This document shows positions 2,290-55,868 of a stretch of 64,000 nt of DNA, piece by piece. The position numbers and the translations under genes were made by a program. Position 1 is the stretch's first letter. Each line of letters begins with the position of its first letter. Below the pieces are notes generated by a model. That model made no database searches. It was not told where the DNA came from and saw nothing but the letters and a program-made list of their open reading frames with translations. Source of the stretch: Schmidtea nova (lineage: Eukaryota); NCBI GenBank assembly GCA_044892505.1, contig CM097882.1, positions 384,090,001 to 384,154,000 of the forward strand, written 5' to 3'.

Positions 2290-2694
2290 ACAGGAGTTTT
2301 ATCTGATTCTGATATAAATTGTTGGGCTAGCCAAAACACAGAATAAAAACCCTGAATAAGATAAGTAAAAACATAATAAAAATAGAAAAAATTAACAACA
2401 AACCCACAGTGTTCAGCAATCCGAATCATCGAGATCTGAACAATAATAATAATAACAATAGATGAACAATAAATCATCAGAAAACCTACCCAAGCAAGAC
2501 GCGTGAGTCAACGCGAATAACCAAAAAATGACAGCGCGTAGGTGTACCGCGCGTTAATATAATGAAAATCTAAAATAAATCGGTCAGTACAACTATAAAC
2601 ACAAAGCAATACAAGAAAATACCTGACCAAACACGCAGAAAAATAATACCGTTACAAATAAAATACACAACGCATATGAGAGAAAAGGACGATT

Positions 2695-2862
2695 CTGATT
2701 GGTTGATGACCAATCGAAATTACTATATAAGCAGCAGCCAAAATCAGTACAGAGAGTCATTTTTTACCAAGTATTATTTTCTGTTACGAACTGATAACTT
2801 GCGACAAGTGTAATTCTGTAAAACCTTGTGATCAAGAATTGAAATCGAAATAAAAGGTACGT
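2695..2862 (+). promoter_or_regulatory. Promoter (CCAAT, TATA, Inr), then AATAAA abutting a splice donor
   Basis: CTGATTGG, CCAAT, TATATAA at 2724-2730, TCAGT at ~2744, and GAAATAAAAG|GTACG with donor GT at 2857. The same order recurs at 53284-53435. Confidence 0.6.
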
Positions 2863-3744
2863 TGATTTGAATTATATTATGATTATAAACCCTCATGATT
2901 AAACTTAATAAGGCTGTCCCGAAGGTCATCCGATCTGACGGGATTCTCGGGCCTCTCAGCTCAACACATTTTCATGTGAGGGCTGATGCGGCGACCGAAT
3001 AAGTTTTCTAAACTTAGTAGGGGGGGTACACATAGGCATTGTTATTCTACCCTGTTGACATCGTAGTACAGTACGCAGACAGCCAGGTTTGGGGAATGAT
3101 CATCAAAGTGTAGCGGAGTCATCTCAGTGGAAGGAGACAATGAGTACCCCAGAAAGTCAAGGCCTTGAAACAAGTATACGTACGACATATAAACAAATTG
3201 AATAACGTTTAGATGTAGAGGAGTATCATTTCTACTTCATTAGACATAACATAACTATGAAATATTCCGAGATAAAGATGACCGCAAAGGAGCATTGTGT
3301 CGTAGGGGGTCAATTACCAATAATTAAGGTATCAATCTGAAAAACCCTACGCCCAAAAATATCACTTGTCTTGAGAGTAACGCCTGATATGACCAGTATT
3401 GATTACAATAATAAATGATGCAGCGTGAGATGATGATAACTGAGACGTTGAAGTCGATCACTAGTATGAATGCTACTACGCGACATTGTAAACGGTGAAT
3501 ATTGATGAGCCAACACATAACCAACAAATGTGAGTGGGCCTACCACTGAATATAATAAGATTACGTATTAACTAAACCATTAGTTTAAAAAATGGATAAC
3601 CAAAAGATGAATGAGATGCAAGTAAGCAAAATTTTTACTAATGAAATATGAGATAATGATGTGATAATGGGATGATTTGGATGATGGATGCATGCGGGAT
3701 TGATAACCCAGACAAGACTGAGATAATTTGATACTATAATTCAG

Positions 3745-4290
3745 ATGACGTCGAAAGGAAGAGTACACCCCCGGCGAGGTCAGCCACGGAAGCCAACATT
3801 TTTAGATGCCGATCCAATTCCAGAACTGATTAGGAGGTCCGCAGGACGCATCTTTGGGCGTAGATGCGGCATCACGTGGATGCAAACGTACGATCGGTGA
3901 CATCCTCATTCGATATACGGATTCGGTGGGAAGGAGACCCATCGTGGCCGGTGTTCCCGGGCGTTCTGACCAAGGGACGGAGAAGATGGTTTATTCAATT
4001 TGAGGACGAGCAGGCCAGGCCACGGTGGATACTTTCATTTAGCCCCATATCTGGCCAGGAGCTCCGTCAGTTGGGTTACATCCTATTGGATCAACCGAGG
4101 TGCATCCGCACCGGCGAATTCCAACCCTATCTCAACGCTCCCGGAAATCGGGATATGAATCAACATCAGTAGAGAGATGGAATACGATTGTGGGAGGTGT
4201 TCACCTTCCAGGATGGACTCTGTTGGAATCCGTGCCCAGAGATCTATCAAGAAGATGGAAAAGGATTGGACAATCGGGATTGTGATCAAG
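3745..4290 (+). pseudogene. ORF1 of the 3-kb element (unknown protein; frameshifted, with stops)
   Basis: Acceptor TTCAG|ATG at 3745. Peptides RIRWEGDPSWP and LGYILLDQPRCIRTGEFQPYLNAPGNRD match copy 2 (RIRWEGDPVWP; LGYTFIGPLRCIKTGKVRPYINSPGHRD). Confidence 0.65.
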
Positions 4291-4558
4291 ATCTAGTCGA
4301 ATTCCTATGAATATCTGCAACATTGTCATAATAAAGTGCCTGCGTTTCATATCTAATAAAGAAATGATTTGTCGATTGTGTTATTAATTGAATGCATGTG
4401 GTGAAAATGTGTAACGTCGTTAGACTGATTGGTGACCTTAGGGGTAGAACCTATCTACCGAAAACTGGCAACTATGATGATACATAAAGGGGGAAATGTG
4501 CGACATATGCGGAACCATGGATATAGAGAAAATACTAATCTGCCCACTTTTCCTTTAG

Positions 4559-5119
4559 ATGCATGCAGTAAAGAGTCGTGACTACCAGGAAGAGGCAAGG
4601 GAATCTCGGAAGCGAGCAAAAGCCCTAGAAGCCCGGCTAAGACAGTTGGATACCGAGTTACGGTTAATCAAGACGACTTGGTTTCACCCGGAATGAGTAA
4701 AGGAAATCCAGCAAGCCAGATACCGGGCTGAAAGAACAATAGATGAGCAGGCGCGAGAAACTGCCGCTATCAAGTTAGAATTGAGCAACTACTTGCGAGC
4801 CTCCACCAAAGATTTTATTGAACAACAGTTGAGACCGCTCATCCGCACGAGTACGTTTGATCGATAGGTGAAGGCAACCAGCATCTCAATGGGAGTGCAG
4901 ACCGACGCAAACCCAAACCCGAGTCCAGACACTTTGGAAAAGGTTCGGCAACCAGAAGGATCTAAACGCACCAAAAGAAGGAATCGATTAGGTGCCAAGA
5001 GGCGTCGGGAAAGGCGAGCCTATGCCGAGAAGCTGCGGATAGAAGTCAATTTTTTAAGCGGCTTAACCGAGAGACAATTATTGGATGTGATGAATCCTGA
5101 AGTGTTATTACCCAAATAA
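4559..5119 (+). pseudogene. ORF2 of the 3-kb element: coiled coil + Arg-rich motif + Leu-rich tail (186 aa, two premature stops)
   Basis: CTAAT...CCTTTAG|ATG at 4559; one frame to TAA at 5119 with two internal stops. EGSKRTKRRNRLGAKRRRERRAYAE is identical in copy 2. Confidence 0.75.
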
Positions 5120-5519
5120 ATGTTCTACGTAACAAATTGTGTTTTTATGAATGAATGTGGAACGAATGATGATCTAATTAAACGAATAACTAAATCTAAA
5201 TCATTTATGCCAAAGGACATGGGGAATATCAATCAACCCTAGGCAGTGAATTTAATTAAATGAGAAGGGACCGGAATAAAACGACACATACCTTCTATCG
5301 GTAGTGGTGGACCCGTGAATAAATAAGGGAATAGTAGCCGCAAGGTTGCTCACCTGCCTTATCATTTCACAACGTTGATACAGTTCCAAGATGATGAGTA
5401 GTTAGAGATACATCATGGGTATTAGCGGGGGAAAGCGTTTTTATGTTGGCGAGATCACCCTAACCAATAATATCAAGTATGATCTCGGTTGAAATATTCG
5501 ACCAACAAACCAGCAAAAT

Positions 5520-6270: not shown

Positions 6271-6666
6271 ATGAACTTCATTGCATTGATTCAAACCAAC
6301 GAAGAAAATGACATCACTGAAATACCAAATGGACATTATGCCCATTTACCTGTCAAAAACGCGGAAAATTTTTTCGATCCAAACAATGGCGAAGGTACGA
6401 TCGGTGACATCCTCATTCGATATACGGATTCGGTGGGAAGGAGACAATGTAGAATGTTGCTAAGCAGAAAAACAAAAAAATGGGAAACTCATCGAAGTCT
6501 TCTAGACTCTTATCTCTGTGAATTCGTATGGAGACAGAAACAAAGGAAATGATTTGTTTGACTGTATATTGCGCGATTTAGTATTGTATAATCCGTCAAA
6601 GTAAATTATGTTTTATATAATATTCAATAAGGGGGGTTTAGAAGAGCCTGTTATTTTCTTCGAACC
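6271..6666 (+). mobile_element. Merlin/IS1016 (ISXO2-like) transposase C-terminal fragment with probable right end
   Basis: H.PV.N.ENFFDP..G and LLDSYLCEFVWR fit the ISXO2-type C-terminal motif. The end at 6666 (GTTATTTTCTTCGAACC) is TIR-like. Confidence 0.65.
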
Positions 6667-27669: not shown

Positions 27670-28245
27670 TCATACAAACGTCTCTTCACTTTCTCCGAAC
27701 CCTTCATCTTCGATTCGAGGATTTTCTTGCTCCAATTGTACAGGTTGTATCGGCGTCGGATATAGTGGCCATAGAATGATTGGAGGTTGATTTTGTAGGC
27801 TCTGAACTCTTTCTCGCAAAGTTCTTGAGATTTCTATCTCTTTATCTAGCAAATATGCCATATAATCGAGTTCTTCACTCAGCTGTTCCTTTACCATTTC
27901 AAGCTCTCTTGTTTTTTCCATATTCTTTAACTGCTCAATTTCTTTTTCATAGTTTTGACGGTTTTCTTCCAAGCTTTGGATCGTCATCTCAATTTCATAT
28001 TGCGATTGCTGGATCGCTTTCTCACATTCGACCTTTGTTTCTTCTATCTGCCGTCGCTGATGTTGAATGACAATATCTTTGTGCGTATTTGTACCTCGAT
28101 AACCGGTGACTTCACTATTTGCAATAGTTAATTCCATTGTCAATTCCTCGATATTTCTATCATCCATGTTTTTCTGCTGCTCATATTGTCTATTTTCAAA
28201 TTCCAGGTATTTAATACGAGCTTCTTGATTCCTGGTAAATTTCAT
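27670..28245 (-). CDS. ORF A: ~191-aa coiled-coil protein with Pro-rich/acidic tail
   Basis: Open frame (243 codons in the ORF track; first plausible ATG at 28245) directly downstream of the family-Z TATA at ~28345. Confidence 0.6.
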   Translation of the reverse strand: MKFTRNQEARIKYLEFENRQYEQQKNMDDRNIEELTMELTIANSEVTGYRGTNTHKDIVIQHQRRQIEETKVECEKAIQQSQYEIEMTIQSLEENRQNYEKEIEQLKNMEKTRELEMVKEQLSEELDYMAYLLDKEIEISRTLRERVQSLQNQPPIILWPLYPTPIQPVQLEQENPRIEDEGFGESEETFV

Positions 28246-28329
28246 TCTCCTTTGATTCCATTCGGTTTCTAGTAATAATTTAAACAAAAATCTTTTCGCA
28301 AGTTCTCTTGCAAATTCTGAATGACTTCC

Positions 28330-35101: not shown

Positions 35102-35884
35102 TTAATTTAAGATTTTACTCCAAGCTGCTTTTACCCAACCAACAACATCCTGTAATTTAGGTTTGATATAATTACCTTTTACATTACGTTCGCTTTTGGT
35201 TTCAATATAGATGTTAATTTCTTCCCGAAGATAATTCTTAAATGGCTTATTTAATCCAATATCCAAACTTTGTAAATATGCTGTCATGCCGGATGGAATC
35301 ATGACTTGATCAATATTCTGATTCGAGAGATACTCTTTCATTGTATTAGGTCGGTGTGTACTGCCAGAGTCCCACACCAGTAGTTTCTTTTGATTGTGCC
35401 GTAAAACTGGTGGAAACATCAAATTGATCCATTTTTTAAAAACATCTTGGATACACCAAGCTTTTTCAGTTTCTAAGACGTAAATTCTAGAAATACAATT
35501 GATCATTTCCTTTGTTCCTTTCGTAATCAGCACAGGAGTTAATTTCTTGCCATTACAATCAATGGCAAGAATACATGTAACTCTTGTACTTTCATACCCG
35601 GTTGATAGAATACTGATCGACATAGACCCTTTTCGATCAATTGCTGTTTGTACAGCCTGGCCAAAAAATACCGATGTTTCGTCCATAGCAATTATATTTG
35701 ATGGTTGATATTGTTCAAAATTTAAATTATCCATAAATGTTTTAAAATATAATGCTTCTTTGATGATTTCCACGTCATCTAGCTTAAATAATGTCTTTGA
35801 CCTTCTTAAAGACAGTTTGTATCTGGTTAGAAATCCATCAATCCAGTGTTGTGAAGCTTTGAACTTATCTAAAGAGATATTAAA
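35102..35884 (-). pseudogene. pogo transposase, C-terminal part (CENP-B HTH end + DDE_1)
   Basis: Reads FKASQHWIDGFLTRYKLSLRR, IIAMDETSVFF, LLVWDSGSTH and LQSLDIGLNKPFK. It joins in frame with 51000-51320 when the insertion is excised (1,104 nt, 368 codons). Confidence 0.9.
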
Positions 35885-35888
35885 CTGT

Positions 35889-36932
35889 TGTTAGGGTTCG
35901 AGATCAAGGGATCTCGGGTTTTTGTAATTAAATATTATAAGTAAATAAATAAATATAAATAGCAATTAAGAATTACTATAAATAGATAGATAATAATTAT
36001 AGTAATAAATAAATAGATAAATAGTAATAGTAAATAAATAATTACTATAAATAAATATAGATTAAATATAGTAATAATTAAATAGTATATAATAAATATA
36101 GTAATAAATAAATACATGATAAATTTAAATAATAATAATAAGTTATATATAGTAATAATAAATTACTTTCAATAAAAATATAATAATTATAAATATTTTT
36201 AAAGGCAGTGGTAAAACACCACCGCAGTTTTAAGAGATGATGATGAGCGTAGTAGTGTGTAAACCTACTATCGTTCAAATTGTATATATACTGATTACAA
36301 AATCAGTTGAAAAAAACATAATTTTTACAGAAGTGAATTTTAGAACATAAGTGTTTACAGAATAGTGAATTTTAGTTCAAAGTTAAATTTGCGTGGAGAG
36401 AATAATTTTACAGAATTTCATTTGTGATAATTTTCCGAAATTGGAATAACCTTTGAGCAAATTATTAGCTGGTAAATTTTCTAGTTTGATTTAATTCTAT
36501 AAATCGATCACGGGGAAATAGTTATATTACTATTTTTCCTCTTCAGTAAAGTCGTTAAATAATAAATTATTAGAAGGGAAATTATTAGGTCACAGTGACA
36601 ACCATTTCTGGGTTGTCACTATCGCGATTAAACTACCGGGAAACCCCTCATCTTGTGTCCTTTCCTTTAGTCGGAGCTGTTGAGCCTTTTAGGTCCAGCT
36701 TTCGTTCTTAAACTCTGAGGACGGTTTGTATAACCGATTTTCTAACTTTTGCTTTGCAGCTATTTTTATTATATTGTACATTGATATACATATTTCACAA
36801 TACATTTTATTAAAAGGAATTAGTTCTTGTTTTCTTTACACACAACCTAAAACATATATTTTATTTATAACTATATAAGCGGATTATCGTTTGGAGTCCG
36901 ATAATCAAATCAAATCAAATCAAATCAAATCA

Positions 36933-36995
<63 letters not shown>

Positions 36996-37031
36996 CTGTG
37001 TTCGTCGTAAACCACTGATACGAACCGAACA
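35889..37031 (+). repeat. 5' LTR (1,143 bp)
   Basis: Identical to 49867-50999 in a line-by-line comparison except one substitution (GTAAAC/GTAATC) and 10 extra nt of (TA)n. Contains a TATATAAG at ~36872, a 10-bp hairpin at 36595-36621, (TCAAA)n and (TA)n. Confidence 0.97.
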
Positions 37032-37034
37032 TTT

Positions 37035-37052
37035 TGGTGAGCCCGACGTGAT
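37035..37052 (+). promoter_or_regulatory. PBS, tRNA-Trp
   Basis: TGGTGAGCCCGACGTGAT, 3 nt after the LTR; 17/18 match to the established tRNA-Trp PBS. Confidence 0.9.
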
Positions 37053-37123
37053 ACAATTATTATCAGTGGGCATATTGTTATATATACAAAATAGCTCCTA
37101 AAAAGACAAAAGTTGTGGAGGAC

Positions 37124-38002
37124 ATGGCTGAAGAGAATAATGTTTTTGCTAGATATCCCGCTTTACCTGTCAAGGCATTTAGCGGAGATCCAGGGGAATT
37201 TCCGGAGTTTATGTCAGAGTATTATCAGATGGCAAAGGCCTATGGGTATCCAGATGCAATAATGATACAAAGACTGCCAATTTACCTTAAGGGTATGGCA
37301 AGGGAAAACTACAATGATATTATGGCGTTACCAACAGCAGATAAACCAGGTACATGGGAAAAGATGAGAGAATCACTAACAGCTAGAATATTACCGGGAG
37401 ATTCAAGCAGAATTTTCCGACAACAATTTTATCATAGAAAACAGAATGCCAATGAGCATGTAGGAGAATTTTCTTATCAATTATTGTTACTAGCAGAAAG
37501 AGCATTTGGGCTCAGAACTACCTGGAATGATGCAACTAAAGCTATGGTTAAAGACCAATTATTAGCTGGATTCACAAATGTAATGAGAAATGCATTGATT
37601 CTCCACACGGGAGATGATTTTTGGGAATTAACCAGAAAAGCTGTCGTAATCGAAAGCAGCTTAGAAAAGGCTACCTCATTTATGGTAAATAATGAGAAGC
37701 CAGCAATTGAATGTTTTAACTGCCATAAGAAGGGGCATATATCAAAAGATTGCCACAGTAAGAAGGTAGCTGATACTCGTAGGAGTATTCAGTGTACTAA
37801 ATGTGGTATAAATAATCATAGTGTTGAGAACTGTAGAGTCACGAACTTGCAGTGTGATAAATGCAAACGCAGAGGGCATGTGGCTTCCGTTTGTAGAGTT
37901 AGGAATCTCCCCACGAATGGGAATTTTAATATTAAAAGGGATGATGTTAATTCATCAGGAAAGATAAATGCCACGGATGTGGAAAATTCGGGCATATTCT
38001 GA
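37124..38002 (+). CDS. Gag (capsid + three CCHC knuckles; a fourth knuckle lies in the -1 frame at 37969-38010)
   Basis: CFNCHKKGHISKDC, CTKCGINNHSVENC and CDKCKRRGHVASVC; capsid-like helical region. Confidence 0.93.
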   Translation: MAEENNVFARYPALPVKAFSGDPGEFPEFMSEYYQMAKAYGYPDAIMIQRLPIYLKGMARENYNDIMALPTADKPGTWEKMRESLTARILPGDSSRIFRQQFYHRKQNANEHVGEFSYQLLLLAERAFGLRTTWNDATKAMVKDQLLAGFTNVMRNALILHTGDDFWELTRKAVVIESSLEKATSFMVNNEKPAIECFNCHKKGHISKDCHSKKVADTRRSIQCTKCGINNHSVENCRVTNLQCDKCKRRGHVASVCRVRNLPTNGNFNIKRDDVNSSGKINATDVENSGIF

Positions 38003-41000
38003 GGTCGTGTCCTCAAAATCAGAGTAATAATATGAATAGTAGGACTACCAATAGTGGTAATGTCAGCAAGCCAAAAACTACGTTCATGGTCAATCACGAT
38101 AAAGAATTGACGTATTTGCAACAACTGGAAATGGAAATCCAGGAGGAGAAAAATCGATTAGCACGGCTAATGGATCGAGATGATACAGTTTTTATGATTT
38201 CAGCTGAGAAAAATCATGCTCACACAGATGAGCGAGGAACAGTTTTGATGAATACAATTGAAGAAATAAATGAGACTCCCACAGTTGGGCAAGAGACAGT
38301 TTTTATGATTTCAGCTGAGAAAAATCATGCTCACATGGATGGGCGAGGAACAGTTATAATGAATCCCATTGAGGAAAGCGATGATGCTCACACAGTTGGG
38401 CAAGGAACAGTTTTGATGATTTCAGCTGAGAAAAATCATGATGCTTACACAGATGAGCAAGGAAATAGTGAACCCATGGATTCCAGCAGCGAGAATCATG
38501 AGGTAATAGAATCAGAGACAAATTCTGATAATGATGACGAACCCAGTATGAGTACCATACTGAGCGAGTTCGACCAGGCTTTGTTCAAGGAAACAAAGGC
38601 CAAGAAAGGGTCAGATACCCTAGCAAAATGTTTTAAACTGGTGGATTCCAGATATGAGTATCAGCAGAGACTGACTAGAGAATTAGAGAAATTATCACAA
38701 GGTGATATCAAGAACAGTGAAATTGGAAAGATATTACAATTAATATCTCAGGTCGAAGATGATCCAAGGTATCATAGCGACATACATAAAATCCTACGAA
38801 AGATAGGAACTGCAATGGAGCATGAATGGGATCTTCAGGATTCGCATTTAAACATAAAACTTCCTCAGGAGCAGGAGTTTAACATCGACATGAATGTAAG
38901 ATGTCGAACAGACAAGTTGTCAGATACAATGATGAAATTGAAACATAATAGATATGATTTTTATTTATATGGAGAAAAGTTAGTAGTTGGGGAAACACTA
39001 CTACAAAATGGTGTATTACCAGGAAGGGTAACGAAACTCACAACGAAACTGACAGGAATATCGGTCCCAGTAGTGGATCAAGACAGTGTGTTTCTACTCA
39101 CACAAATGGAAATTGCACAGTTGGAGGAAGTCCAACAAATAGAGCAACGCCTGAAGATAGAGTTGCAGAAATCTCCGAGGGATGGAGAAACAATCAAGGA
39201 AATATTAGACTGGATGTTGGTATTGCGCATACCAGTAGAATCATTGGAGAGTATAATTCCTATTCTACTACCTGTAGTAAAGGAAACTAGTTCATTTCAA
39301 ACGGAAATAAAAATGTTAATGAGAAAAAATGGAACAGCAATACGTCATCAAGCACATCGACAAGGCATGATAACTTTAGACATTCGAATATCGGGAAAAG
39401 AACCCATGACGAGGTTATATCGTTGTTTTAGCAAAGTAATAACTTTGAGAAAAGATTTAATAGATACTGGGCAGACTACCGGTATATTCTTGATTATGAT
39501 TCATGGAGGGCAAGTGGATGATGATGAATATTTAGTAGATGTGGGATGTCTACCATTTGAAACGACAACAGTAGCAATCATTCCCGTAGAGCCACCTGAA
39601 TCTCAATGGTCAGCATTACGGTTACCAGATGAAATGGTCACTGGTAATGTTGAAACACAACCATTTAATGTAGATATCGATGCCGATAATCACGGAGAAG
39701 AGGAAATCAGACTCAATAATGAGGAAACTAACGTGGGAGCTTCAACTTCTCGGGCGGTAGAAACTATCAGGCCAGAATGGCAGACAAAGAAAGATAGGCG
39801 AGGAAGGCCTAGGAAAGATCAAATGAAACCTCCACCAACGGAGCAATTAAACCAAGAAACCATTAAACAGGTTCAGATGAAAACCCTGTCAGGAATAGCC
39901 AGGGATGTTGATATGAGAGACGAAGGTGTACATATACCAGAAAAATCTCTGACATGGAAGAGATTAAAACAGATCATAGGAATATTAAAGCCGGAATGGC
40001 AGATTACTCGGATTAAAGGAATTCAAGTGGATAAAGTGACACAGTCAATCGCGAAGACGATGAGGAGATTACCTAGAGGGGTACCGCAAAACGAGATACA
40101 GAGTATGTTAGAGACACTCATACAAGATGGGTTATCTAAAGGAAAAATAGTGACAGCATTATCTATGTTGATTCAAGATGCTTTATCCCGCACAGGCAAT
40201 GAGAAGAAACTTATTAATCGAGAAATAGACCAGATCACGGAGATAACGGAGCATTATCTTGGAACGTGGATGAGTGAAAATAACTTCTGGGAAGAGGAGA
40301 AACATAAACCACGATATGAATTTGTGGAAGAGGCTATGAATAACAACCACCTCGGAAATGGAGAAATGGGGAATATGACGAATATGATATTAATGTTTTT
40401 AGTAATGATGGGGATTATGAAACAGACAAACACAATGACAGCGTTTGATTGCAGTGATCCAAAGTTAGCTCGGATATATTCGCTCGTAGATGCAATTGAG
40501 TGCAAAGAGGCATATCCAGAGAAAGTCCAAACAGGAGAAAAGGTCGAATACTATGTCTACCAAGAAAGTGAATTCTTCAGAACTAAGATAAGAGAATGTA
40601 GAGTCCAAAGAGCGACGTTTGAATATTATTGTGGTTCACACAGCTATACAGCTTTTCTATCAGCCACTCTAATACCTAGACCAGTTAACATATTGCCAGA
40701 AGATTGTCTAGATGCCTTTCGAAAAGGTACTTTAAGAATCGATAACGAGGTAACCATCGCCGCGGAAGTAGTAAAAACACTGGGAGTAACAATTACACGA
40801 GGAGGATCAATCGGATCAGATGGTACCTGTACGGGAAGAAAGAAAACTCGCGGATCGGAGTGTGTAAGTTTTGTCGTAGATATTGAGGACTATTCAATCG
40901 AATTAAGAGAATACGAAGGGACGTTCGATGTATTATCAGGTAGATTAATGGCACACCCTCAGTGCCTTGCGAAATTTGGAAGCTGCAGAACAGGGGTCAT

Positions 41001-43308
41001 TACATTATTATACGATCAAATACTAGACCATTGCGAATTGTCATTACTAAAGAAAATTAATTTCCATAAGTTGAACGGGACAAAGTATCGAGATTTACCC
41101 AAAAGAGAAAGAATTTGGGATAAAGAAAAGACGTTGAAAAGGATCAACAAACAGCAAAAAGAGGATATTAGTGAGGAAATCACACCTCTAGTATTAGTAT
41201 CAGAAGATAAGAAAGATGCAATCAGATTTGTCAGAAAAGATAAGAAGACAAAATGCGGAAAAGTGGTGTACGAGACCAACTATAAAGGATTATATTTGTC
41301 AAAAACATTTATCCAAAAAGCCAAGAATATTCACAGCCAGGATATCAAAATCACGAACTATATAAATAATAAAATAGATTATTTATATCATGATCTGCAA
41401 GGACAAATGCAGGAAATGTATCAGGAAGTAATACTCAATGATTGCAAACTAAATCGCGAAATAGTTCGAAATCGATTAGCGATATCAATCGTGAATCCGG
41501 ATCTAGTGACACCTATGTTGCTAGAAGATGGAATGTTTGGCAGAATTATGGGGGAAGCTATATACAGCTATCAATGTCAACCCATAGAGGTACAATTAAC
41601 ACGGTATAATGAATGTACTCTAGAATTACCAGTGTCATATCAAAACAAAATACGATTTGTAATGCCAGTAACGAGGAGACTTTTGGATGAAAAACAAAAG
41701 CCTCAACCTTCAATTTGCAATCCAGCAATATCGCCGTTATACAAGGTAAATGATAGATGGATCTCATTACCTGACCGAAAACCATCTAATAGAAAGGTGG
41801 AAACATTGGAAGTCACGAAACTCGAGGAAAACATGGAATTTAAATCACTCGATGAATTATCACAAGGAGGAATTTACACTCCAGCAGACATTGAGGAGGC
41901 AAGACAGACATTGCTATTCCCTCAAGTAAGAGAAAGAGGTATCACAGAAATCATAAGAACAATTTACCAAGCAAACGAAATGAGACCAGATTACAATTTA
42001 TTATTTGGTCCAGATCATTATAAAGAAGCAGCTAAAAATGTGATGATGAAAATATGGGGAAGGTTTACCAATTTTGGTATTTTCGTGGCAGGCTGCTCAG
42101 GAATATATGCAATATTCGTAATTCTAAAGTTAATAATAACACAATTAATTTCCACATACAGTATATTCAAAATCGGTGGATGGTCTTGGAAGTTGATACT
42201 AGGATTATGTCCTATGTGTGCGGAATTTGCATTGTTTAAACACCATCGTAAAGAAATAAAGACAATCAAACAGAGAAGCTTGGTAAAACACGAGATTATT
42301 GGAATCGAAATGGAGGGTAATACAAGTTATCGGGACGATAACAATTCGGAAGGAGGAGGTAATGGAGACTCTCTTAATACAGTTCAGAGGCAAAGTAGAA
42401 GTCGAAAAAGAAACTACAATAAAAAACCGAATCATCAATTAAGGAAAATGAAATATCGGGATTATCAACCACCTTACGAAGCGACAAAACAGATTTTCGA
42501 CAAAAGTATGATTTCAGAAGATGAATACGATAGTGCAGACCAGAAATTTGCAATCAATACAGCATCGCCTAGATTGAAAAGAAGCCCAAGATATATGCAA
42601 TTGCCATATCTTAGAAGTTTACCAACAGCGCCAAAGGGGGAATCGCCAGAGTTTCAAAAGACATCAGGAGAAGGCAAGCCAAGTTATGCTTTAACTTTAC
42701 CAAGGAACAAAATTTACACTTCTAAACATCAACAAATTCTCGACAAAGATGCTCGAGAGACAGGTAAAAGCATATCATTATCGTTAGAAAATGAAGGGAA
42801 ACTGTATCCTATCGAGTCGTTAGAAGCAATAAAAGCTAAATTCAAGGAATATAATCCAAAATTGAGTGATACCGAACAAGATGAGGCAGAGAAATTCAGA
42901 GCAAATACCATCGGGATAACGCATGCTACTATTTTGATGGCAAATGGGGTGAACTTGGATAAGAAACCCATGATAAAGATAAAAATAAACAGACACACAG
43001 TTAATGCAGTGATAGATTCAGGAGCCGACGGCACTATCATAGAGGCAACACTATTAAATCAAAAAGAATTGGAATCAATGGAAACCTCTAGAGTTTCGCT
43101 AACAGGTGCTACAGGCACATCATTGAATATTATTGGTACTCTAGCTTGTAACATCAAGCTATGTGACCAAGAATTTCGTCATGATATTATAGTCATGAGA
43201 ATTTGTCCAGTAGAATGTCTACTAGGAATGGATCTTTTAAGAAGATTAAAAGGAGTTGTGTTCGATTGTGCTACCGGATTGTTAGTTAGATCAATCGGTA
43301 AGAAATGA
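37951..43308 (+). CDS. Polyprotein part 2: 4th CCHC - 37-aa repeats - helical/ubiquitin-like modules - signal peptide - gB/chuvirus-type glycoprotein - TM - aspartic protease
   Basis: The frame is open from 37951 (CHGCGKFGHILRSC). Glycoprotein motifs: AFDC, YYCGSHS, YINNKIDYLY, GEAIYSYQC, LPV, P.TR, GGIY. TM at ~42060-42240. Protease AVIDSGADGT (Asp at 43015) with LLGMDLL. Confidence 0.85.
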   Translation, partial: FIRKDKCHGCGKFGHILRSCPQNQSNNMNSRTTNSGNVSKPKTTFMVNHDKELTYLQQLEMEIQEEKNRLARLMDRDDTVFMISAEKNHAHTDERGTVLMNTIEEINETPTVGQETVFMISAEKNHAHMDGRGTVIMNPIEESDDAHTVGQGTVLMISAEKNHDAYTDEQGNSEPMDSSSENHEVIESETNSDNDDEPSMSTILSEFDQALFKETKAKKGSDTLAKCFKLVDSRYEYQQRLTRELEKLSQGDIKNSEIGKILQLISQVEDDPRYHSDIHKILRKIGTAMEHEWDLQDSHLNIKLPQEQEFNIDMNVRCRTDKLSDTMMKLKHNRYDFYLYGEKLVVGETLLQNGVLPGRVTKLTTKLTGISVPVVDQDSVFLLTQMEIAQLEEVQQIEQRLKIELQKSPRDGETIKEILDWMLVLRIPVESLESIIPILLPVVKETSSFQTEIKMLMRKNGTAIRHQAHRQGMITLDIRISGKEPMTRLYRCFSKVITLRKDLIDTGQTTGIFLIMIHGGQVDDDEYLVDVGCLPFETTTVAIIPVEPPESQWSALRLPDEMVTGNVETQPFNVDIDADNHGEEEIRLNNEETNVGASTSRAVETIRPEWQTKKDRRGRPRKDQMKPPPTEQLNQETIKQVQMKTLSGIARDVDMRDEGVHIPEKSLTWKRLKQIIGILKPEWQITRIKGIQVDKVTQSIAKTMRRLPRGVPQNEIQSMLETLIQDGLSKGKIVTALSMLIQDALSRTGNEKKLINREIDQITEITEHYLGTWMSENNFWEEEKHKPRYEFVEEAMNNNHLGNGEMGNMTNMILMFLVMMGIMKQTNTMTAFDCSDPKLARIYSLVDAIECKEAYPEKVQTGEKVEYYVYQESEFFRTKIRECRVQRATFEYYCGSHSYTAFLSATLIPRPVNILPEDCLDAFRKGTLRIDNEVTIAAEVVKTLGVTITRGGSIGSDGTCTGRKKTRGSECVSFVVDIEDYSIELREYEGTFDVLSGRLMAHPQCLAKFGSCRTGVITLLYDQILDHCELSLLKKINFHKLNGTKYRDLPKRERIWDKEKTLKRINKQQKEDISEEITPLVLVSEDKKDAIRFVRKDKKTKCGKVVYETNYKGLYLSKTFIQKAKNIHSQDIKITNYINNKIDYLYHDLQGQMQEMYQEVILNDCKLNREIVRNRLAISIVNPDLVTPMLLEDGMFGRIMGEAIYSYQCQPIEVQLTRYNECTLELPVSYQNKIRFVMPVTRRLLDEKQKPQPSICNPAISPLYKVNDRWISLPDRKPSNRKVETLEVTKLEENMEFKSLDELSQGGIYTPADIEEARQTLLFPQVRERGITEIIRTIYQANEMRPDYNLLFGPDHYKEAAKNVMMKIWGRFTNFGIFVAGCSGIYAIFVILKLIITQLISTYSIFKIGGWSWKLILGLCPMCAEFALFKHHRKEIKTIKQRSLVKHEIIGIEMEGNTSYRDDNNSEGGGNGDSLNTVQRQSRSRKRNYNKKPNHQLRKMKYRDYQPPYEATKQIFDKSMISEDEYDSADQKFAINTASPRLKRSPRYMQLPYLRSLPTAPKGESPEFQKTSGEGKPSYALTLPRNKIYTSKHQQILDKDARETGKSISLSLENEGKLYPIESLEAIKAKFKEYNPKLSDTEQDEAEKFRANTIGITHATILMANGVNLDKKPMIKIKINRHTVNAVIDSGADGTIIEATLLNQKELESMETSRVSLTGATGTSLNIIGTLACNIKLCDQEFRHDIIVMRICPVECLLGMDLLRRLKGVVFDCATGLLVRSIGKK

Positions 43309-46300
43309 AAAGTTTATAATGATGATACAGTTTTCATCGATCATACAATGATAATACCACCCAGAGCAGAAACAGTATGTTTCGTGTCCACTAGCGAACA
43401 GTGGGAAGGAGAAGTTGTATTCGAACCAGATGAAAGGTTCTCAGCAAAATATAATCTACCAATTACGCATAGCGTTGGTAAAGTTGAAAATGGCAGAATA
43501 CCAATTCGGGTAGCCAATTTAGATATAAAACCATTAAAATTGTATCCAGATACAAGAGTAGGGAGAGTATCAAAGTCTGATCAATTACCGAATGGAGGAT
43601 CTGTCCTGACAATAAAGGCAGAAAATAGAGAACCAGACATTGAGTACTATGATGCGCCAACGGCAAATAGTAAAGCTCTTTCACGAAGAGAGAATATCCA
43701 AGTCAACATGTTATTAAGAAAATATGATCAGGTATTCGCCAAGCACGAATATGATTTGGGAAAGACGAACTTGTTGGAACATGAAATTGTTCTTAACAAT
43801 ACGAAACCAATAAAACTGAGACCGTATCGAATTCCGTTTAGCTTGGAAGAACCTGTCGATAAGCAGGTAAAACTGATGTTAAAACATAACATCATCAGGC
43901 ATAGTAAATCACCATACCAGTCACCAATGATAGTAGTGGCAAAAAAGGATGGAACAGTACGACTATGCAACGATTATCGAATGGTAAACGAAGCAACTTG
44001 CAAGGATAGTCACCCATTACCATTACTGGATTACATCTACGGTCGTATGAGAAATTCAAAATATTTCTCAGTATTGGATGCTCAGAAGGGGTTTTACCAA
44101 ATCAAGTTAAAAGAGGAGACAATACCAATTACGGCTTTTTCTACAAGCCTTGGACACTTCGAATATACAGTAATGCCATTTGGTCTCACAGGAGCGCCGG
44201 CAACGTTTCAAAGAGCAATGAATCTAATGTTAATGGATGTTCATCATGCAATGGTATAAATAGATGACATCATAGTATTTTCTCCAGATTTGGAAAAACA
44301 TTTAGAACATTTAGAGGACGTATTCAAAAGGTTAATTAATGCAAATCTTAAGGTAAAACCATCAAAATGTAAATGGGCCGAATCAGAAGTAGTCTATGTC
44401 GGTCACATTATCTCGAAGGATGGAGTAAAACCAGATCCAGCAAATGTTGAGAAAGCAAAGAATTTTCCAGAGCCAAAGACAGTCAAACATATTAAAGGGT
44501 TTTTGGGCTTAGTGGGATATTACAGGAAGTTCATCAGGAACTTTTCGGCAATAGCATTTCCTTTAACACAATTAGAGGGCAAAAATGTCAAATTTGTATG
44601 GGGAAAAGAGAAACAGGAAGCATTTGATATGCTAAAGAGGATGCTCGTGGAACCTCCTATATTACGGTTTCCAGATTTTGAGAAACAATTTTTGGTCATG
44701 ACAGACGCCAGCACTCGGGGTATTGGTGCTGTGTTAGGTCAGAGAGATGACCTAGGAGACGAATACGCCATAGCGTATGCTAGCAGAGGATTAAAACCAC
44801 ATGAAAAGAATTACGCAGTTATCGAATTAGAAGCATTAGCAATTGTGTATGCTATACACCAATTCAGGACATATTTATGGGGTCGAAAGATCATTGTGTA
44901 TACGGATCATAGACCATTACAGTGGTTAACAAAGCATACTATGGATACATCAAAATTGGTTAGATGGGCACTGATCTTGCAGCCATACGACATCGAAATA
45001 CATTACCGAAAAGGACACCAAAATGGGAATGCAGATGCATTTTCTCGAATGGACCAGGGTGATGAAGCAGAAGATGTCAAAGAAGGAAGATTAGAAGGAA
45101 CAATCTTCGCACTTACAAGAGAAGCAAACAGACTCGCGGATTTAATGGCAGCACAACAATCGGATGAAGAGATAAACCAAATCAGACAGGCTTTAGAAGC
45201 AAAGTTCATACCGACGGAATTTAATAAATATTGGGAGAAAAATCGAGACAAATTTATCCTTGAAGAAGGATTAGTCAAATATGTGGATGTAAGGGATAAT
45301 GTCAAAATGGTCCCTAAGAAATATCGCGAAGCTTTGATGTTACAATATCATGATGGAGCACTGGGAGGGCATTTGTCTGCCAGGAAAACATTGTCAAGGT
45401 TGAAGCAGAAATATTTCTGGCCGACAATCAAACAAGACATACAGGAATGGTGTCAGACATGTAAGATCTGTATCACCAGGAGAAATACGGGGAAGAAACC
45501 GCATGTGCCAATGAAACCAATGCCAGTACCATCCACACCGATGGAAATGACGGCAATGGATGTTTTAGGGCCATTCAAAGAATCAAATAGTGGTAACAAA
45601 TACATATTAGTATTTTGCGATTACTTGACAAAATGACCGGAGGCTTATCCGATACCGAATCACAAGGCAGATACGATAGCCAGGATTTTCGTAGAGCAAA
45701 TCGTTTTTAGGTATGGAGTACCTACAAAACTACTAACAGATAGAGGAGCAGATTTCATGAGTAATCTGTTAAAAGGAATAAATGATTATTTCGACATTTT
45801 AAAATTGAATACCTCTCCATACCATCCACAAACAGACGGATTGGTAGAGAGATTTAACGGAACGCTTGCAAATATGCTAGCATCATACGTAAATTCAGGG
45901 CAAACGGATTGGGATATACATATCCCATCATGCCTATTCGCATATAGAAATGCTGTTCATGAGGGTACGGGACAGACGCCGTTCTATCTCATGTATTTAA
46001 GGCAAAGTAAAATGCCTATAGATTTGTTGTTCTTCCCAAAAGCAACACAGTATCTAGACCAAGAAAATTACCTCATGGAAATGAGAGAAAGAATGCAAGA
46101 AGCATGGACAAAAGCCGGTCTTAGTATAAAATTCAGCCAGGAAGCGTCGAAAGATTATCATGATAAGAAAGCCAAAGGACATGGCATGTTAGTTGGAGAC
46201 AAGGTGATGTTGGAAAGCCATTATAATAAAAAGGGCTTATCACCAAAATTAATGAGAAACTTCAAAGGACCGTATGAGGTTTTGAGAACCACAGACACAA

Positions 46301-47391
46301 ATTTAATCTTGCAATTAGTAGCAAATAGAAAAGCTGAACCAATAATGGTACATGCTAACAGATGCAAGAAAGTTGCGGTCACAGAGAAAGATCAGGTTAA
46401 GAAAAGGGAGGATAAAGGGTCAGAACCAGTCTCAGACCGATATCCATTACGATCAAGGGGCGTGCCAAAATCAGTTACATTTTTGGTAATAATAAGTTGC
46501 CTCATATCCTGTGTAAAGACATTTGTTCCCACAGCGGTTCAAATCCAAGATCTCGCATTCAGAAGATCTTTTCAGGAATTTCGGATAATATCATTAGCTG
46601 AAAATGATACCAAATTCAAGTTCTCGTTTTGCGAACGACGTTGTTTCCATTTTACATTGGATTCAAACACAAGAGTGAAAGTCATAAAGGACTTACGAGC
46701 AGAAAAGGAATATTTATTAGATATACTTGTTCAACATTTTATGTTTGGACGATGGTCAGATTTTTCAAAGTCACAATGGAAGCTGAAGACAGCGGATTTC
46801 AAAAGGAAAGTTAGAATAAATATCCAACAAGGTATGATTACCTTCAGCCAACCAAAACAAGGAGTGGATAGGGTAAAGATAGAAATCCATTCCGACAAGG
46901 AAATAGTACAAGAATTGTGGCTAAATGAAGATATTGAGAAACAAAATCTCAAGTGGAACAGCTCAGTGGAGTGGGAAGCTCATATCACTTATATGAATAA
47001 TAAACAAAAGCCCGGAGTCGATGAATGGAATGAGGTATTTTATGAAGTAATCTCTTTGAAATTACCTCAATCATCGACGACAACGAAATCAGTTACATCC
47101 TTGATACGGAAAGAAAGTTACGTCATTCATCCGGCAATATGGCAGAGATTGAAAGGATTGAAAATGGTAAAACCAACAGTATCAACAGAAAGCTATATTA
47201 AAAGTTGTCAGTGTGAAATTAATGAAGTAAACCCCATTACTCACTTGGGAAAATTACCCGTTGGGGTATGGATTATTACGTCAGCAGTATTAGCTATGAT
47301 CACTACATTGATAGCAATGGGAGTTTGGATGAAACTATTCTTCAGCCAGGCTATTGAGTCGGTTGATGGGATTATGATGACGAGATTATGA
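43309..47391 (+). pseudogene. Pol (RT, RNase H, integrase with HHCC and GPY) plus a C-terminal membrane protein; same frame throughout, interrupted by stops at 43306, 44257 and 45634
   Basis: RLCNDYR, LDAQKGFYQI, V*IDD (YIDD), TDASTRGIG, YTDHRPL, HDGALGGH..CQTC, LTDRGADF, NGLVERFN and KGPY. Confidence 0.95.
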
Positions 47392-47577
47392 CAATTACAG
47401 ATAAAATCACATATTTGTATTTATATATATATTAAAATCTATAATCTTGTTGAGCTCCGAGTAGCATTAACTTACAGCATAAGTAGATCCCGTAAATCGA
47501 GATTTATGCATTTCTTTTTAGCCAATATTGGCATATCAGTATATCTGATATTAACGTTAATTATTTTTCTTTCAGAT

Positions 47578-49542: not shown

Positions 49543-49831
49543 CATTTCTGCTACGTTCAATCCAAGGTCTAGCAATAAGCTATGACAACTATCAATCAAA
49601 CAATTAGCATTTCGGCTATGTAATCAACAATCCAACTCTTACAGACAGTTATTATTTGATATCGATTGTGATCAACATTACTTATGTATTATGTGTTTTA
49701 TGAGACTCATTTGTTTTTATGCGATTTATTTTAATTTTTATTGACCACGTGCATTTAATGTATATATATGCATGTGTTGTTATTTTATTTTTATTTTATG
49801 GCTGCGTAACCTTCTTGTCTTTTCCGCTTTA

Positions 49832-49866
49832 ATTTTCGGGACGAAAATCTTGTTAGGGGGAAGACA
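49832..49866 (+). promoter_or_regulatory. GGA-loop hairpin and polypurine tract before the 3' LTR
   Basis: ATTTTCG-GGA-CGAAAAT, then AGGGGGAAGACA immediately before TGTTAGGG. Confidence 0.85.
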
Positions 49867-50910
49867 TGTTAGGGTTCGAGATCAAGGGATCTCGGGTTTT
49901 TGTAATTAAATATTATAAGTAAATAAATAAATATAAATAGCAATTAAGAATTACTATAAATAGATAGATAATAATTATAGTAATAAATAAATAGATAAAT
50001 AGTAATAGTAAATAAATAATTACTATAAATAAATATAGATTAAATATAGTAATAATTAAATAGTATATAATAAATATAGTAATAAATAAATACATGATAA
50101 ATTTAAATAATAATAATAAGTTATATATAGTAATAATAAATTACTTTCAATAAAAATATAATAATTATAAATATTTTTAAAGGCAGTGGTAAAACACCAC
50201 CGCAGTTTTAAGAGATGATGATGAGCGTAGTAGTGTGTAAACCTACTATCGTTCAAATTGTATATATACTGATTACAAAATCAGTTGAAAAAAACATAAT
50301 TTTTACAGAAGTGAATTTTAGAACATAAGTGTTTACAGAATAGTGAATTTTAGTTCAAAGTTAAATTTGCGTGGAGAGAATAATTTTACAGAATTTCATT
50401 TGTGATAATTTTCCGAAATTGGAATAACCTTTGAGCAAATTATTAGCTGGTAAATTTTCTAGTTTGATTTAATTCTATAAATCGATCACGGGGAAATAGT
50501 TATATTACTATTTTTCCTCTTCAGTAAAGTCGTTAAATAATAAATTATTAGAAGGGAAATTATTAGGTCACAGTGACAACCATTTCTGGGTTGTCACTAT
50601 CGCGATTAAACTACCGGGAAACCCCTCATCTTGTGTCCTTTCCTTTAGTCGGAGCTGTTGAGCCTTTTAGGTCCAGCTTTCGTTCTTAAACTCTGAGGAC
50701 GGTTTGTATAACCGATTTTCTAACTTTTGCTTTGCAGCTATTTTTATTATATTGTACATTGATATACATATTTCACAATACATTTTATTAAAAGGAATTA
50801 GTTCTTGTTTTCTTTACACACAACCTAAAACATATATTTTATTTATAACTATATAAGCGGATTATCGTTTGGAGTCCGATAATCAAATCAAATCAAATCA
50901 AATCAAATCA

Positions 50911-50963
<53 letters not shown>

Positions 50964-50999
50964 CTGTGTTCGTCGTAATCCACTGATACGAACCGAACA
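49867..50999 (+). repeat. 3' LTR (1,133 bp)
   Basis: Direct repeat of 35889-37031. Confidence 0.97.
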
Positions 51000-52927: not shown

Positions 52928-54177
52928 TGTTGGGCCAGGCAAATCAGAGAGAATTTAAAAAGAAAACTAAAATCAATATAATAAATAACATAGAAACAAC
53001 GACCAAATAAATTTACTAAGCACTAAGTATTTAGCAATATGCAGCAGAAGCATAAAGTAATGAAGCATGAATCAAAATAGATAATAACATTAGAAACTCA
53101 CCCATGCGGAATACCAATAACTTGAAAATCTGACAAGGCGGGGGCAGATATCACCGAGAATCTACAATAAAACAAATATTAACAAAAGATTCACGGATGA
53201 TTAAACAACAACTTACCGAATTAGGTACACGAAAAAAAACATTAAAAATGAAATGCAAACAATATCTTCACGCCCACTAAATTCTGATTGGCTAGCCGGC
53301 AACACAATTCAGTTTAAATACTGCAGTCAAATTCAGTAAGTCAGTCATTTATCACCAGTCATTTTTACCAAGTGTAAATTTTCACTGAGAGTCATTTATT
53401 CTACTTTGTGGAATCAAATCGAAATAAAAGGTACGGTTATATTCTTATGTTATTATTATAAACCCTCATGCTTAAAATTCATAAGATTGTCCCGAAGGTC
53501 ATACGATCTGACGGGATCTCGGCCTCTCAGCGCAACACATTCTTATGTGAGGGCTGATGCGGCGAGAGAGATAAGCGACTAAACGGGGGAAGGGTGCACA
53601 TAGACATAAGTAAATTCTGTAGTAACTGAATGATATGAGGATATGTTCAGGGGTAGTAAATACCTATCAGCTCACATGTTAATTATTCCATCTCCGATTT
53701 GCATAGACAGTATTGTAGAGTAAAAGGCTGCATGCACCAGTAATAGGTAAACCCATACTGAAATCAGTCGTATTCCAAGTATATGAGAGAAATGATAGCC
53801 CATAATAAGCCGAAAAAAATTTGCAAATCAGTGTTAGACAAATTTAATCTGTGATCACCGATAAATCGCATAAGTCAAGCAAATCAGCGCACTGAAGTGA
53901 CGTATACTAGTCTAAAAGTATTGACAAAAACATAGTGTGGTACCGTGTAGGCCGACGTACAATCATCTTTAAAGTAATAACTGTTCACAGATCAGCAATT
54001 TAAAAATCATCGGTGCAATGTAATATCAACAACAATAAATTCTGAGTAAGATTCAATTCACTTCTGAATGTATGGATGTATGATAAGTATGAAAAGGAGG
54101 GATGAAAAAAATGAGGATGATTGAGGATTGAATGAAGAATGTCAGCGTTAAATTATATATTACCTAATTTGCAGCTC

Positions 54178-54725
54178 ATGCCGAAAAGAACTCAGACCAA
54201 GTACCACTGCCAGCCGACAGTGATCAACGTCCTAAATGTCACAACGAGTGACGATATTCCAGTAGAAATCTACAACACAGCTGAGAGGCATATGCGAGCT
54301 TGGAGACGCCGACATGTAAATATGAGAGTGTCCGTCGGGGAGACTCTCTACCGATATCGAATCAGATGGGAAGGTGACCCTGTCTGGCCGGAGATGAAAG
54401 AGGACCATGCCAAGGCTTCACGAGGTGGTTCGTCCATGAAAAGGTCCGTTGGATGCTAACCTTCATCAAAATTCCAATTGGTATTTTCCAACGGCTTGGC
54501 TACACCTTTATTGGCCCTCTAAGATGCATTAAGACAGGGAAAGTGCGACCCTACATCAACTCTCCAGGGCATCGCGACCTGCATCAAGACACATGGGATC
54601 CGAAAACAACCCTACGGGAAGTATTCGTATACAGGGACGAATTATGCTGGATTCCCTGTCCATATTTCTATCACCCGGATGGAACCGGCAAAGAAAACCG
54701 AACCTGCGATCAAGACTGGATTTAA
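54178..54725 (+). pseudogene. ORF1 of the 3-kb element, copy 2 (one frameshift)
   Basis: CTAATTTGCAG|CTCATG; homologous to 3745-4290. Confidence 0.7.
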
Positions 54726-54948
54726 ACCTGACAATCGAATGAAATTTTATGAGATAAAAATAAATTAATAAAATTTTGTGTCTCTTGTTGTTAAATGCAT
54801 GAAAGCTGACAAACTGAGGTCGAAGTATGATGAATAAGAAATGTGATTGTAAAGGTCAAGGGTGGGGAGTGAGAAACAAAAATGAATTCGAGGAATTTAT
54901 TACCCTGAACCTTAGAGTGAACCCAATAATCGACCAAATCCTTTTTAG

Positions 54949-55484
54949 ATGGACTCGACTACTAGCCACCCCAACGAGATACGCTCATTGCAACAACGTA
55001 TCAGAGCATTCAAGAGCCTCGTGAAACGACAGGAGGTAGAAATTAACGAATTGCGGACGACCTAGTTCAGCCCGGAACGGGTCAAGGACATCCAGAAAGG
55101 CCGATACCGGGTGGAGCGGGCTCTAGAGGATCAGACCCGGGAAGTTGCAGCCACTAAGCTGGAACTCAATAACTATTTGAGAGCCTCCACTTTGAGAGTC
55201 CATTGATTCGGACGAGTACCTTCAATCGTTGGGTCAAGTCGGTTGGTGTGTCCAACGGGACACAAACCGATGGAGGTACTTACAGCACACGAGAAATACC
55301 AAGACAATTTTCCAAAACCGAGGGCTCGAAACGCACTAAGCGAAGGAACCGCCTGGGCGCTAAGAGGCGTCGAGAAAGACGGGCGTATGCAGAAAGAATT
55401 GGGATCGAAGTGGATCTCCTGAGTGGATTAACGAAAAGCAACTGCTGGATGTCATCAACCCTACTGTATTGTTGGATTAAATAA
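54949..55484 (+). pseudogene. ORF2 of the 3-kb element, copy 2 (stop plus deletion frameshift)
   Basis: CCTTTTTAG|ATG; KLELNNYLRAST, LIRTSTFNRW and EGSKRTKRRNRLGAKRRRERRAYAE are shared with copy 1. Confidence 0.75.
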
Positions 55485-55868
55485 ATGTATTGTTGTTAAC
55501 GTGTATCTTTAAGAATGAATGGGGAATGAATGATAATTTAAATAACTGAATGATTGAGTATATCCAATTCATTCAAAAGCTAACGGACATGAGGAATATA
55601 AATCAACCCTAGACGGTGAATTAATTAAATGAGAGGGGACCGGGATAAAACCACACAGACCTTCTATCGGTAGTGGTGGACCCGTAAATAATTAAGGGAA
55701 TCGTAGCCGCAAGGTTGCTCACTTGCCTTATCATTTCACAACGTTGATACAGTTAGGGATACATCATGGGTATCAGCGGGGCAAGCGTTTTTATGTTGGC
55801 GAGATTACCCTAACTAATAACATCACTATAATCTCTGTTGAAAAATCCGACCAACAAACCAGCACAAT

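Follow-up and report, generated by a model that had tools for sequence, protein, structure and literature searches.

The present study concerns a 64,000-nucleotide stretch of the Schmidtea nova genome (assembly GCA_044892505.1, contig CM097882.1, positions 384,090,001 to 384,154,000 of the forward strand; hereafter the window) and, in particular, two diverged gene-carrying units in it, A and B, which a first-pass annotation had taken for solo long terminal repeats (LTRs) of a giant element. A and B are solo LTRs of a 29.5-kb gypsy retrotransposon, homologous LTRs of which flank gag-pol as direct repeats, and the two open reading frames (ORFs) of the LTR, ORF1 and ORF2, are real protein-coding genes under purifying selection. 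The reading that we favour, at a probability of about 0.72, is that these are solo LTRs of Burro type, in which the LTR carries two conserved genes and expresses them from its own promoter by splicing a short non-coding exon to either one.

The limits first drawn for the two copies, namely the end of A at 5515, both borders of B, the TGTTGG...CCAGCA ends and the 4-bp target-site duplications (TSDs) AAAT and CAAT, held good, except that the start of A had been placed at 2290, 30 nt too early (Table 1). As had also been observed, no primer-binding site (PBS), polypurine tract (PPT) or pol adjoins either copy, and self-comparison shows no long terminal inverted repeats. When aligned, A and B have the same order of features; they agree closely in the block behind the predicted splice donor and over the final 250 nt, moderately in the two ORF regions and little in the intron. 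Copy B sits in the reverse transcriptase (RT)/RNaseH region of an unrelated decayed gypsy pol, the frame of which resumes across B. A and B were rejected as the two LTRs of one element because of their separate TSDs, and each was likely left by recombination between two LTRs.

The parent element was found where the first-pass annotation had proposed to look, that is, as direct repeats that flank gag-pol in pairs. Nine same-strand neighbour pairs, 22.7–33.2 kb apart, were followed up from the first 100 matches listed, and six of them are clean full elements of 29.1–29.8 kb, with LTRs of 3.1–3.3 kb that are 98.7–100% identical within the pair, 4-bp TSDs and an internal region of 22.8–23.6 kb; the other three are one nested element, one with matching TSDs but LTRs 77.6% identical, and one segmental duplication. 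An 18-nt PBS, located 6 nt past the 5′ LTR, pairs exactly with the 3′ terminus, CCA included, of a tRNA-Pro(TGG) for which this genome has genes, and a short conserved purine run, PPT-like, lies a few nucleotides before the 3′ LTR. The polyprotein frame of ≈ 4,970 codons, broken at least once in every copy listed, contains, in Pfam order, CCHC, a Monjiviricetes-type fusion protein (PF24664, before the protease), protease, RT, RNaseH, integrase and ankyrin repeats. A 152-aa RING ORF precedes gag, and downstream of the polyprotein there follow a TRAF ORF (RING, zinc finger, MATH) and ORFs of 386 and 174 aa; these internal accessory ORFs are spaced 74–90 nt apart with an acceptor just before each ATG, and all four begin just behind an AG. 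The protease-RT-RNaseH-integrase order, the tRNA primer site, the TG...CA LTR ends and the 4-bp TSD place the parent among the Ty3/gypsy elements, whose TSDs measure 4–6 bp.

Some further loci deserve mention. The primer tRNA of the giant element, tRNA-Pro(TGG), is encoded in a tandem gene array with a 308-bp period (L184-L187, C1:459.6 Mb; 899 pattern matches in the genome). Two apparent LTR pairs were rejected, that at C1:6.15 Mb being a segmental duplication and that at C2:107.75 Mb (L031-L033) one solo LTR split by a 15.7-kb insertion with long inverted ends; another insertion with long inverted ends, of ≈ 18.6 kb, lies in the env region of an old element (L084-L087, C3:97.57 Mb), and both are Polinton-like by size and shape only.

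The family is large. Searching the genome by DNA similarity yielded 3077 candidates, of which 40 were scored, giving 57 matches. A 17-mer from the 3′ block occurs exactly 823 times in the genome, against 0 for a control, and LTR-end/PBS junctions number 160 at ≤ 1 mismatch. These last two counts are lower bounds and point to a few solo LTRs for each element that has a primer site. Behind one LTR with 81–82% identity to A come the same PBS and an internal sequence that matches a young element at 81–89%; the subfamily of A itself is older than the young elements.

For the analysis of the LTR genes, 44 complete units were assembled (27 with a PBS, 5 3′ LTRs, 9 solos and 3 unclassified), while 18 of the 40 stretches fetched gave no complete unit by end patterns and were excluded. 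ORF1 encodes 186–211 aa and ORF2 185–193 aa. In PBS-bearing LTRs, the frames are intact in 24/27 (ORF1) and 23/27 (ORF2) cases, and in solo LTRs in 2/9 each; in the window both are broken in both copies, so that A and B themselves are dead. The ratio of nonsynonymous to synonymous divergence (dN/dS; Nei-Gojobori) is 0.17–0.25 for ORF1 (28 intact frames) and 0.08–0.12 for ORF2 (26 intact frames) in every dS bin, the saturated pairs, 124/378 and 112/325, respectively, not being binned. The two-gene LTR of the first-pass annotation is thus borne out, with dN/dS of ≈ 0.2 and ≈ 0.1.

Neither product has a recognizable relative in the libraries searched. For both ORFs, no relatives were found in a set of 5.8 billion proteins (lengths near the query only), among PDB sequences or among viral contigs; Pfam gave no family, apart from a single bZIP match in 1/25 ORF2 members, and the ESM Atlas gave weak unnamed matches only. 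Two matches of an ORF1 profile in 1.84 billion proteins were rejected as tandem-repeat proteins with summed weak matches. The ORF1 model (predicted local distance difference test, pLDDT, 61.5) has, with modest confidence, a basic N-terminal helix followed by a small beta-sheet, beyond which no role could be assigned to ORF1 from this model; a fold search with it against PDB and BFVD found nothing at E ≤ 0.001 (best Z 3.5), which is not proof of a new fold. ORF2 is predicted to form long helices (residues 9–114), a disordered linker and a basic helix (143–159), and an arginine-rich motif and a TQT-type motif are each present in 26/26 intact frames. TQT motifs bind dynein light chain; as a separate observation, ≈ 20 near-identical intronless copies of dynein light chain (LC8) occur in clusters at C2:5-45 Mb (L208-L213). 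Basic helices of the ORF2 type recall Rev, and ORF2 could tentatively be a dimeric RNA-binding regulator of unspliced RNA, Rev/Rex-like, although we would not be surprised to see this assignment fail. Most likely, ORF1 and ORF2 serve the replication of the element itself.

The signals that would express these genes were counted on 37 non-redundant LTRs. An inverted CCAAT box is present in 37/37, a TATA box in 34/37 and the splice donor in 35/37; AATAAA touches the donor, ending 2 nt before it, in 33/37, overlies the ORF2 stop in 36/37 and lies in the stem of the 3′ block in 34/37, and the LTR has, in all, four conserved poly(A) candidates, the donor-touching AATAAA and three further downstream. 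An AG acceptor with a pyrimidine tract lies ≤ 14 nt from the ATG in 24/28 intact ORF1 and 24/26 intact ORF2 frames, as against 92/718 control ATGs in the intron. Because of this conservation across 37 LTRs and the excess of acceptors over control ATGs, the order of motifs is not due to chance. The splice and poly(A) motifs are kept while the surrounding intron drops to ≈ 0.35–0.6 identity. The predicted splice sites had been placed correctly at the outset (exons ending at 2856 and 53430 at the donor and beginning at 3745 and 4559, or 54175 and 54949, at the acceptors); CCAAT and TATA boxes had been assigned to both copies, and here the CCAAT box stood, while the TATA box of B did not, B being one of the three misses. 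By this arrangement of sites, ORF1 and ORF2 are likely expressed by alternative splicing. Four runs of one study, none of them recorded as RNA, on a 10-kb stretch with a young 3′ LTR, gave DNA-like reads; among 15 of 76 joints inspected, no GT..AG and none at the predicted sites was seen, which is uninformative either way. Two junction patterns for retrocopies of spliced forms, each covering one LTR clade, had 0 genome matches each.

The conserved hairpin noted earlier after the donor proved to be two covarying hairpins, with two-sided changes at 7/23 pairs (25/29 extracted sequences aligned); the structure of the 3′ block, which adjoins the PBS in 5′ LTRs, has such changes at 5/67 pairs (23/34 aligned). 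In both blocks, covariation exceeds all or nearly all shuffles and all slid controls. An Rfam scan of copy A gave 0 matches up to E 5, and hammerhead, hepatitis delta virus (HDV), K-turn and SECIS readings of A were weighed by eye and dropped. Retroviruses place packaging and export signals in structures kept only in unspliced RNA, and since the post-donor hairpins would likewise be kept only there, the intronic block (2887–3035 in A) is predicted to be a packaging or export signal. The first-pass annotation took the poly(A) signal touching the donor to suggest a switch between splicing and polyadenylation, which is a possible role for it; the AATAAA within the structured 3′ block is, as a candidate, an equally good genomic poly(A) signal as that at the donor. 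Genomic RNA ending at the donor may mean a short repeat region (R), with the genes in the unique 5′ region (U5) and control by U1 as in foamy virus; genomic RNA ending in the 3′ block may mean a long R with the genes inside it.

A further property of the family is the co-existence of several deeply diverged LTR haplotypes, combined with an internal region that is nearly uniform. Silent divergence among the six young elements is 0.19–0.28 in seven internal segments, and in the same elements at least 1.35 for ORF1 and at least 1.51 for ORF2 (15 pairs each, 2 and 5 of them saturated), so that silent divergence is about sevenfold higher in the LTR portion predicted to be transcribed than in the internal genes. 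In 21 young 5′ LTRs (210 pairs; one further young LTR with a replaced leader was left out), mean identity is high in the unique 3′ region (U3; 0.91), the internal leader (0.90) and the 3′ block (0.97) and lower in exon 1 (0.75), the intron (0.62), ORF1 (0.75) and ORF2 (0.78), and it falls from 0.91 to 0.61 between LTR nt 391–420 and 421–450, just past the TATA box. Exon 1, intron plus ORF1, and ORF2 reassort between haplotypes; two LTRs (L072 and L172) switch clades between ORF1 and ORF2. The G+C content at third codon positions is 0.49–0.56 in the LTR ORFs versus 0.41 in RT. The neighbour pair with LTRs 77.6% identical (L088-L092, G000:C1:115234435-115270837), which has matching TSDs, a young internal region and a nested copy inside, suggests LTR replacement. 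In Onsen, older family members have been documented to recombine into new insertions (PMC5668417). Donation of old alleles by solo-LTR transcripts could account for a border at the predicted start site; U3 may also be under stronger constraint, a mutation bias may act locally, or balancing selection may be at work. A complex-retrovirus-like element, whose regulatory genes (ORF2 as a Rev/Rex-like factor and ORF1 as its partner) would lie in the transcribed LTR portion and whose unspliced solo-LTR RNAs would keep the packaging hairpins, be co-packaged and recombine into active elements, is a speculative idea which we hold a little less probable than the Rev-like guess for ORF2 by itself. If true, co-packaged solo-LTR RNAs would explain both the ancient haplotypes (silent divergence > 1) on a young internal region (0.2) and the onset of diversity exactly at the predicted start site.

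In the mechanism proposed here, transcription would start ≈ 25 nt past the TATA box (LTR nt ≈ 420–440), and because the start would lie just past that box, the genes would fall in R/U5, not U3, and be kept in every solo LTR. From the single donor, one short leader exon would be spliced alternatively to ORF1, to ORF2 or to one of the internal accessory genes, which have AG-ATG starts. These genes would form a series of terminal cassettes, beginning with the two in the LTR, and each would end at its own poly(A) signal; unspliced RNA would retain the post-donor hairpins and be the packaged genome. Several points tell against this reading. A paired element of the subfamily of A or of B was not found among the pairs followed, the A-like element described above ends after the integrase with no second LTR, and the paired LTRs share with A, in protein, only ≈ 42% (ORF1) and 60–65% (ORF2) identity. 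The predicted transcription start, splicing and poly(A) sites rest on conservation, and the TATA-to-TCAGT spacing is below the textbook value. The shuffle controls ignore relatedness, and the two-sided changes come from few events. As to the Rev-like guess, arginine-rich helices occur in many proteins, and the leucine-rich C-terminus of ORF2 is only a loose fit to the pattern of an export signal, with a proline in it.

The same element and genes could also be read with the AG-ATG cassettes resolved by spliced-leader trans-splicing of a polycistronic RNA. The internal accessory ORFs, 74–90 nt apart with an acceptor before each ATG, have an operon-like spacing of the kind found in nematodes, and both operons and spliced-leader trans-splicing have been reported for flatworms; the cis donor, unneeded for trans-splicing, is nevertheless kept in 35/37 LTRs within a highly variable first exon, and we consider this reading improbable as a replacement for cis-splicing, although the two can coexist. 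About as improbable is the view that the LTR genes, instead of regulating replication, are cargo that is selfish or aimed at the host (a poison/antidote pair, say, or a factor against silencing), with a position in the LTR that doubles their dose and survives in solos. The deep co-existing haplotypes on a near-uniform internal region are what balancing selection on a specificity would give, and Burro elements bear other host-manipulating domains, as described in the part of PMC6431247 that was available and, for a Burro1 IAP, second-hand in that of PMC13465017. At the same time, ORF1 and ORF2 reassort between haplotypes (L072, L172), contrary to what would be expected of a matched poison/antidote pair, the low dN/dS values show no sign of overall positive selection, and the solo copies are mostly decayed, each ORF being intact in 2/9.

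The first-pass annotation had also offered, as an alternative to solo LTRs, a small parasite of LTR integrases. A stand-alone 3-kb element, moved by a gypsy integrase or a Ginger-type transposase, would account for the lone copies with their own 4-bp TSD (9/44 units) and for old subfamilies such as A and B, which are mostly seen as solos. It is refuted as a general explanation, and its remaining probability is negligible, by the homologous units that are the paired LTRs of full elements and by the 160 LTR-end/PBS junctions in the genome; moreover, there is no transposase ORF, and in place of long inverted ends there are only 6 bp of imperfect inversion. The Burro-type LTR with two genes spliced from its own leader remains the preferred reading.

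Table 1 Features of solo LTRs A and B in the window
Feature	Position	Strand	Remarks
Solo LTR A, 3196 bp	2320..5515	+	Ends TGTTGG...CCAGCA; basis: sequence and homology to paired LTRs
TSD of A	2316-2319 and 5516-5519		AAAT; basis: sequence
Predicted promoter of A	2695..2748	+	Inverted CCAAT 2695-2702, TATA 2724-2731, initiator-like TCAGT 2744-2748; putative function; predicted U3/R border
AATAAA and predicted splice donor of A	2849..2858	+	AATAAA 2849-2854 abutting AG/GT, intron from 2857; putative use
Conserved intronic block of A	2887..3035	+	Two covarying hairpins; 7/23 pairs changed on both sides
ORF1 of A	3745..4310	+	Directly behind AG acceptor; broken by 1 frameshift, 2 stops
ORF2 of A	4559..5119	+	Directly behind AG acceptor; 2 internal stops; AATAAA 5115-5120 over stop codon
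Structured conserved 3′ block of A	5267..5515	+	AATAAA 5318-5323 partly within stem
Solo LTR B, 2937 bp	52928..55864	+	Ends TGTTGG...CCAGCA
TSD of B	52924-52927 and 55865-55868		CAAT; basis: sequence
Predicted promoter and first exon of B	53284..53432	+	Inverted CCAAT 53284-53291, degenerate TATA near 53313, AATAAA and donor 53423-53432
Conserved intronic hairpin block of B	53460..53603	+	
ORF1 of B	54178..54725	+	Acceptor before 54175; broken by one frameshift
ORF2 of B	54949..55480	+	Two frameshifts, one stop
Structured conserved 3′ block of B	55636..55864	+	Short deletion

Other features of the window lie outside these two copies. A separate young 15-kb gypsy element (35889–51007) has 1.15-kb LTRs, 98.9% identical and with no long ORF; it has the gag-env-protease order and the Monjiviricetes-type fusion domain of the giant element, to which it is 36–41% identical in protein. 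This 15-kb element abuts a fragment of a Tc5/pogo-type DDE transposase (35102–35890, minus strand). A weak match (28%, E 2e-11) to the 386-aa accessory ORF of the giant element lies within a local repeat (27673–28263, minus strand), and a 57-bp piece of ORF1 of A (3882–3938) recurs, 96.5% identical, at 6389–6445, ≈ 900 bp past the end of A, resembling a templated repair insertion.

An LTR is usually taken to be non-coding, and a solo LTR to be a dead end. The present family numbers at least 800 LTR copies, and its LTR bears two orphan genes under selection together with a predicted promoter and predicted splice sites and poly(A) signals. The formation of a solo LTR therefore leaves the genes in place, and hundreds of such remnants could each function as a small unit of two genes. 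The two protein families, new and free of recognizable homologues, and the two covarying RNA structures occur in a tractable model group, in which Burro elements are reported to affect stem cells. The switch in identity from 0.91 to 0.6 at the predicted start is a hint that solo LTRs feed old alleles back, or that balancing selection acts on haplotypes, and either reading bears on the evolution of LTR families and on dating by LTR divergence.

Of the known systems, foamy virus has its major splice donor and a poly(A) signal inside the LTR, U1 binding and RNA structure deciding the outcome, as far as the accessible text of PMC3694450 describes it. The likeness is that donor and poly(A) signal lie within the LTR and hence in both LTRs; the difference is that the donor is upstream of the poly(A) signal there (PMC3694450), whereas here an AATAAA lies 2 nt before the predicted donor and three more conserved candidates come after it.

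The parent element is, by its anatomy as compared with that described in the available part of PMC6431247, of Burro type, a known kind. Burro/GYPSM1 elements of dugesiid planarians likewise have a total length of ≈ 30 kb, with an internal region of up to 25 kb (22.8–23.6 kb here), and one huge polyprotein, of 4,873 and 5,140 aa there and ≈ 4,970 codons here, with a CCHC gag, an in-frame mononegavirus-like fusion protein before the protease, RT-RNaseH-integrase and ankyrin repeats, and they have MATH/TRAF as an accessory ORF and a RING gene (PMC6431247, same part). The TRAF ORF is downstream of pol here, whereas it is an upstream accessory ORF in the D. tigrina element (PMC6431247). BIR/IAP, BCL2-like and dUTPase-like domains, some of which were found only by HHpred in the elements of PMC6431247, had no Pfam match in the frames scanned here. 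The available parts of PMC6431247, PMC8532177, PMC13465017 and PMC11410931 contain no description of genes inside Burro LTRs, which Grohme 2018 and Lee 2026 may show, and PMC8797187 and PMC13238120 have nothing on Burro LTRs. While the element type itself is known, an LTR that holds two genes downstream of its own TATA box was not found in the literature examined.

Complex retroviruses encode small basic accessory export proteins (Rev, Rex, Rec and Rem), which have an arginine-rich helix and an oligomerisation surface and are made from spliced mRNA. ORF2 resembles them as a small basic protein with a predicted arginine-rich helix, accompanied by structured RNA in the predicted unspliced transcript; it differs in its coiled-coil-like region of 100 residues, absent from Rev, and in its doubtful export signal. 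Searches with ORF2 in the 5.8-billion set, PDB sequences and Pfam showed no similarity of sequence or fold, and this is a resemblance only.

A parallel for protein genes within an LTR is given by sag of mouse mammary tumour virus (MMTV) and nef of the human and simian immunodeficiency viruses (HIV/SIV), which overlap the LTR in its U3 part, ahead of the promoter, and of which the copy in the 3′ LTR is expressed, through splicing from the 5′ end; to our knowledge, all LTR-borne genes known (sag, nef) lie in U3. In those viruses, as in the present element, a protein gene is duplicated in both LTRs of a retroelement. The difference is that here two genes lie downstream of the TATA box, and that a solo LTR unites the predicted promoter, donor, acceptors, genes and poly(A) signals in one unit.

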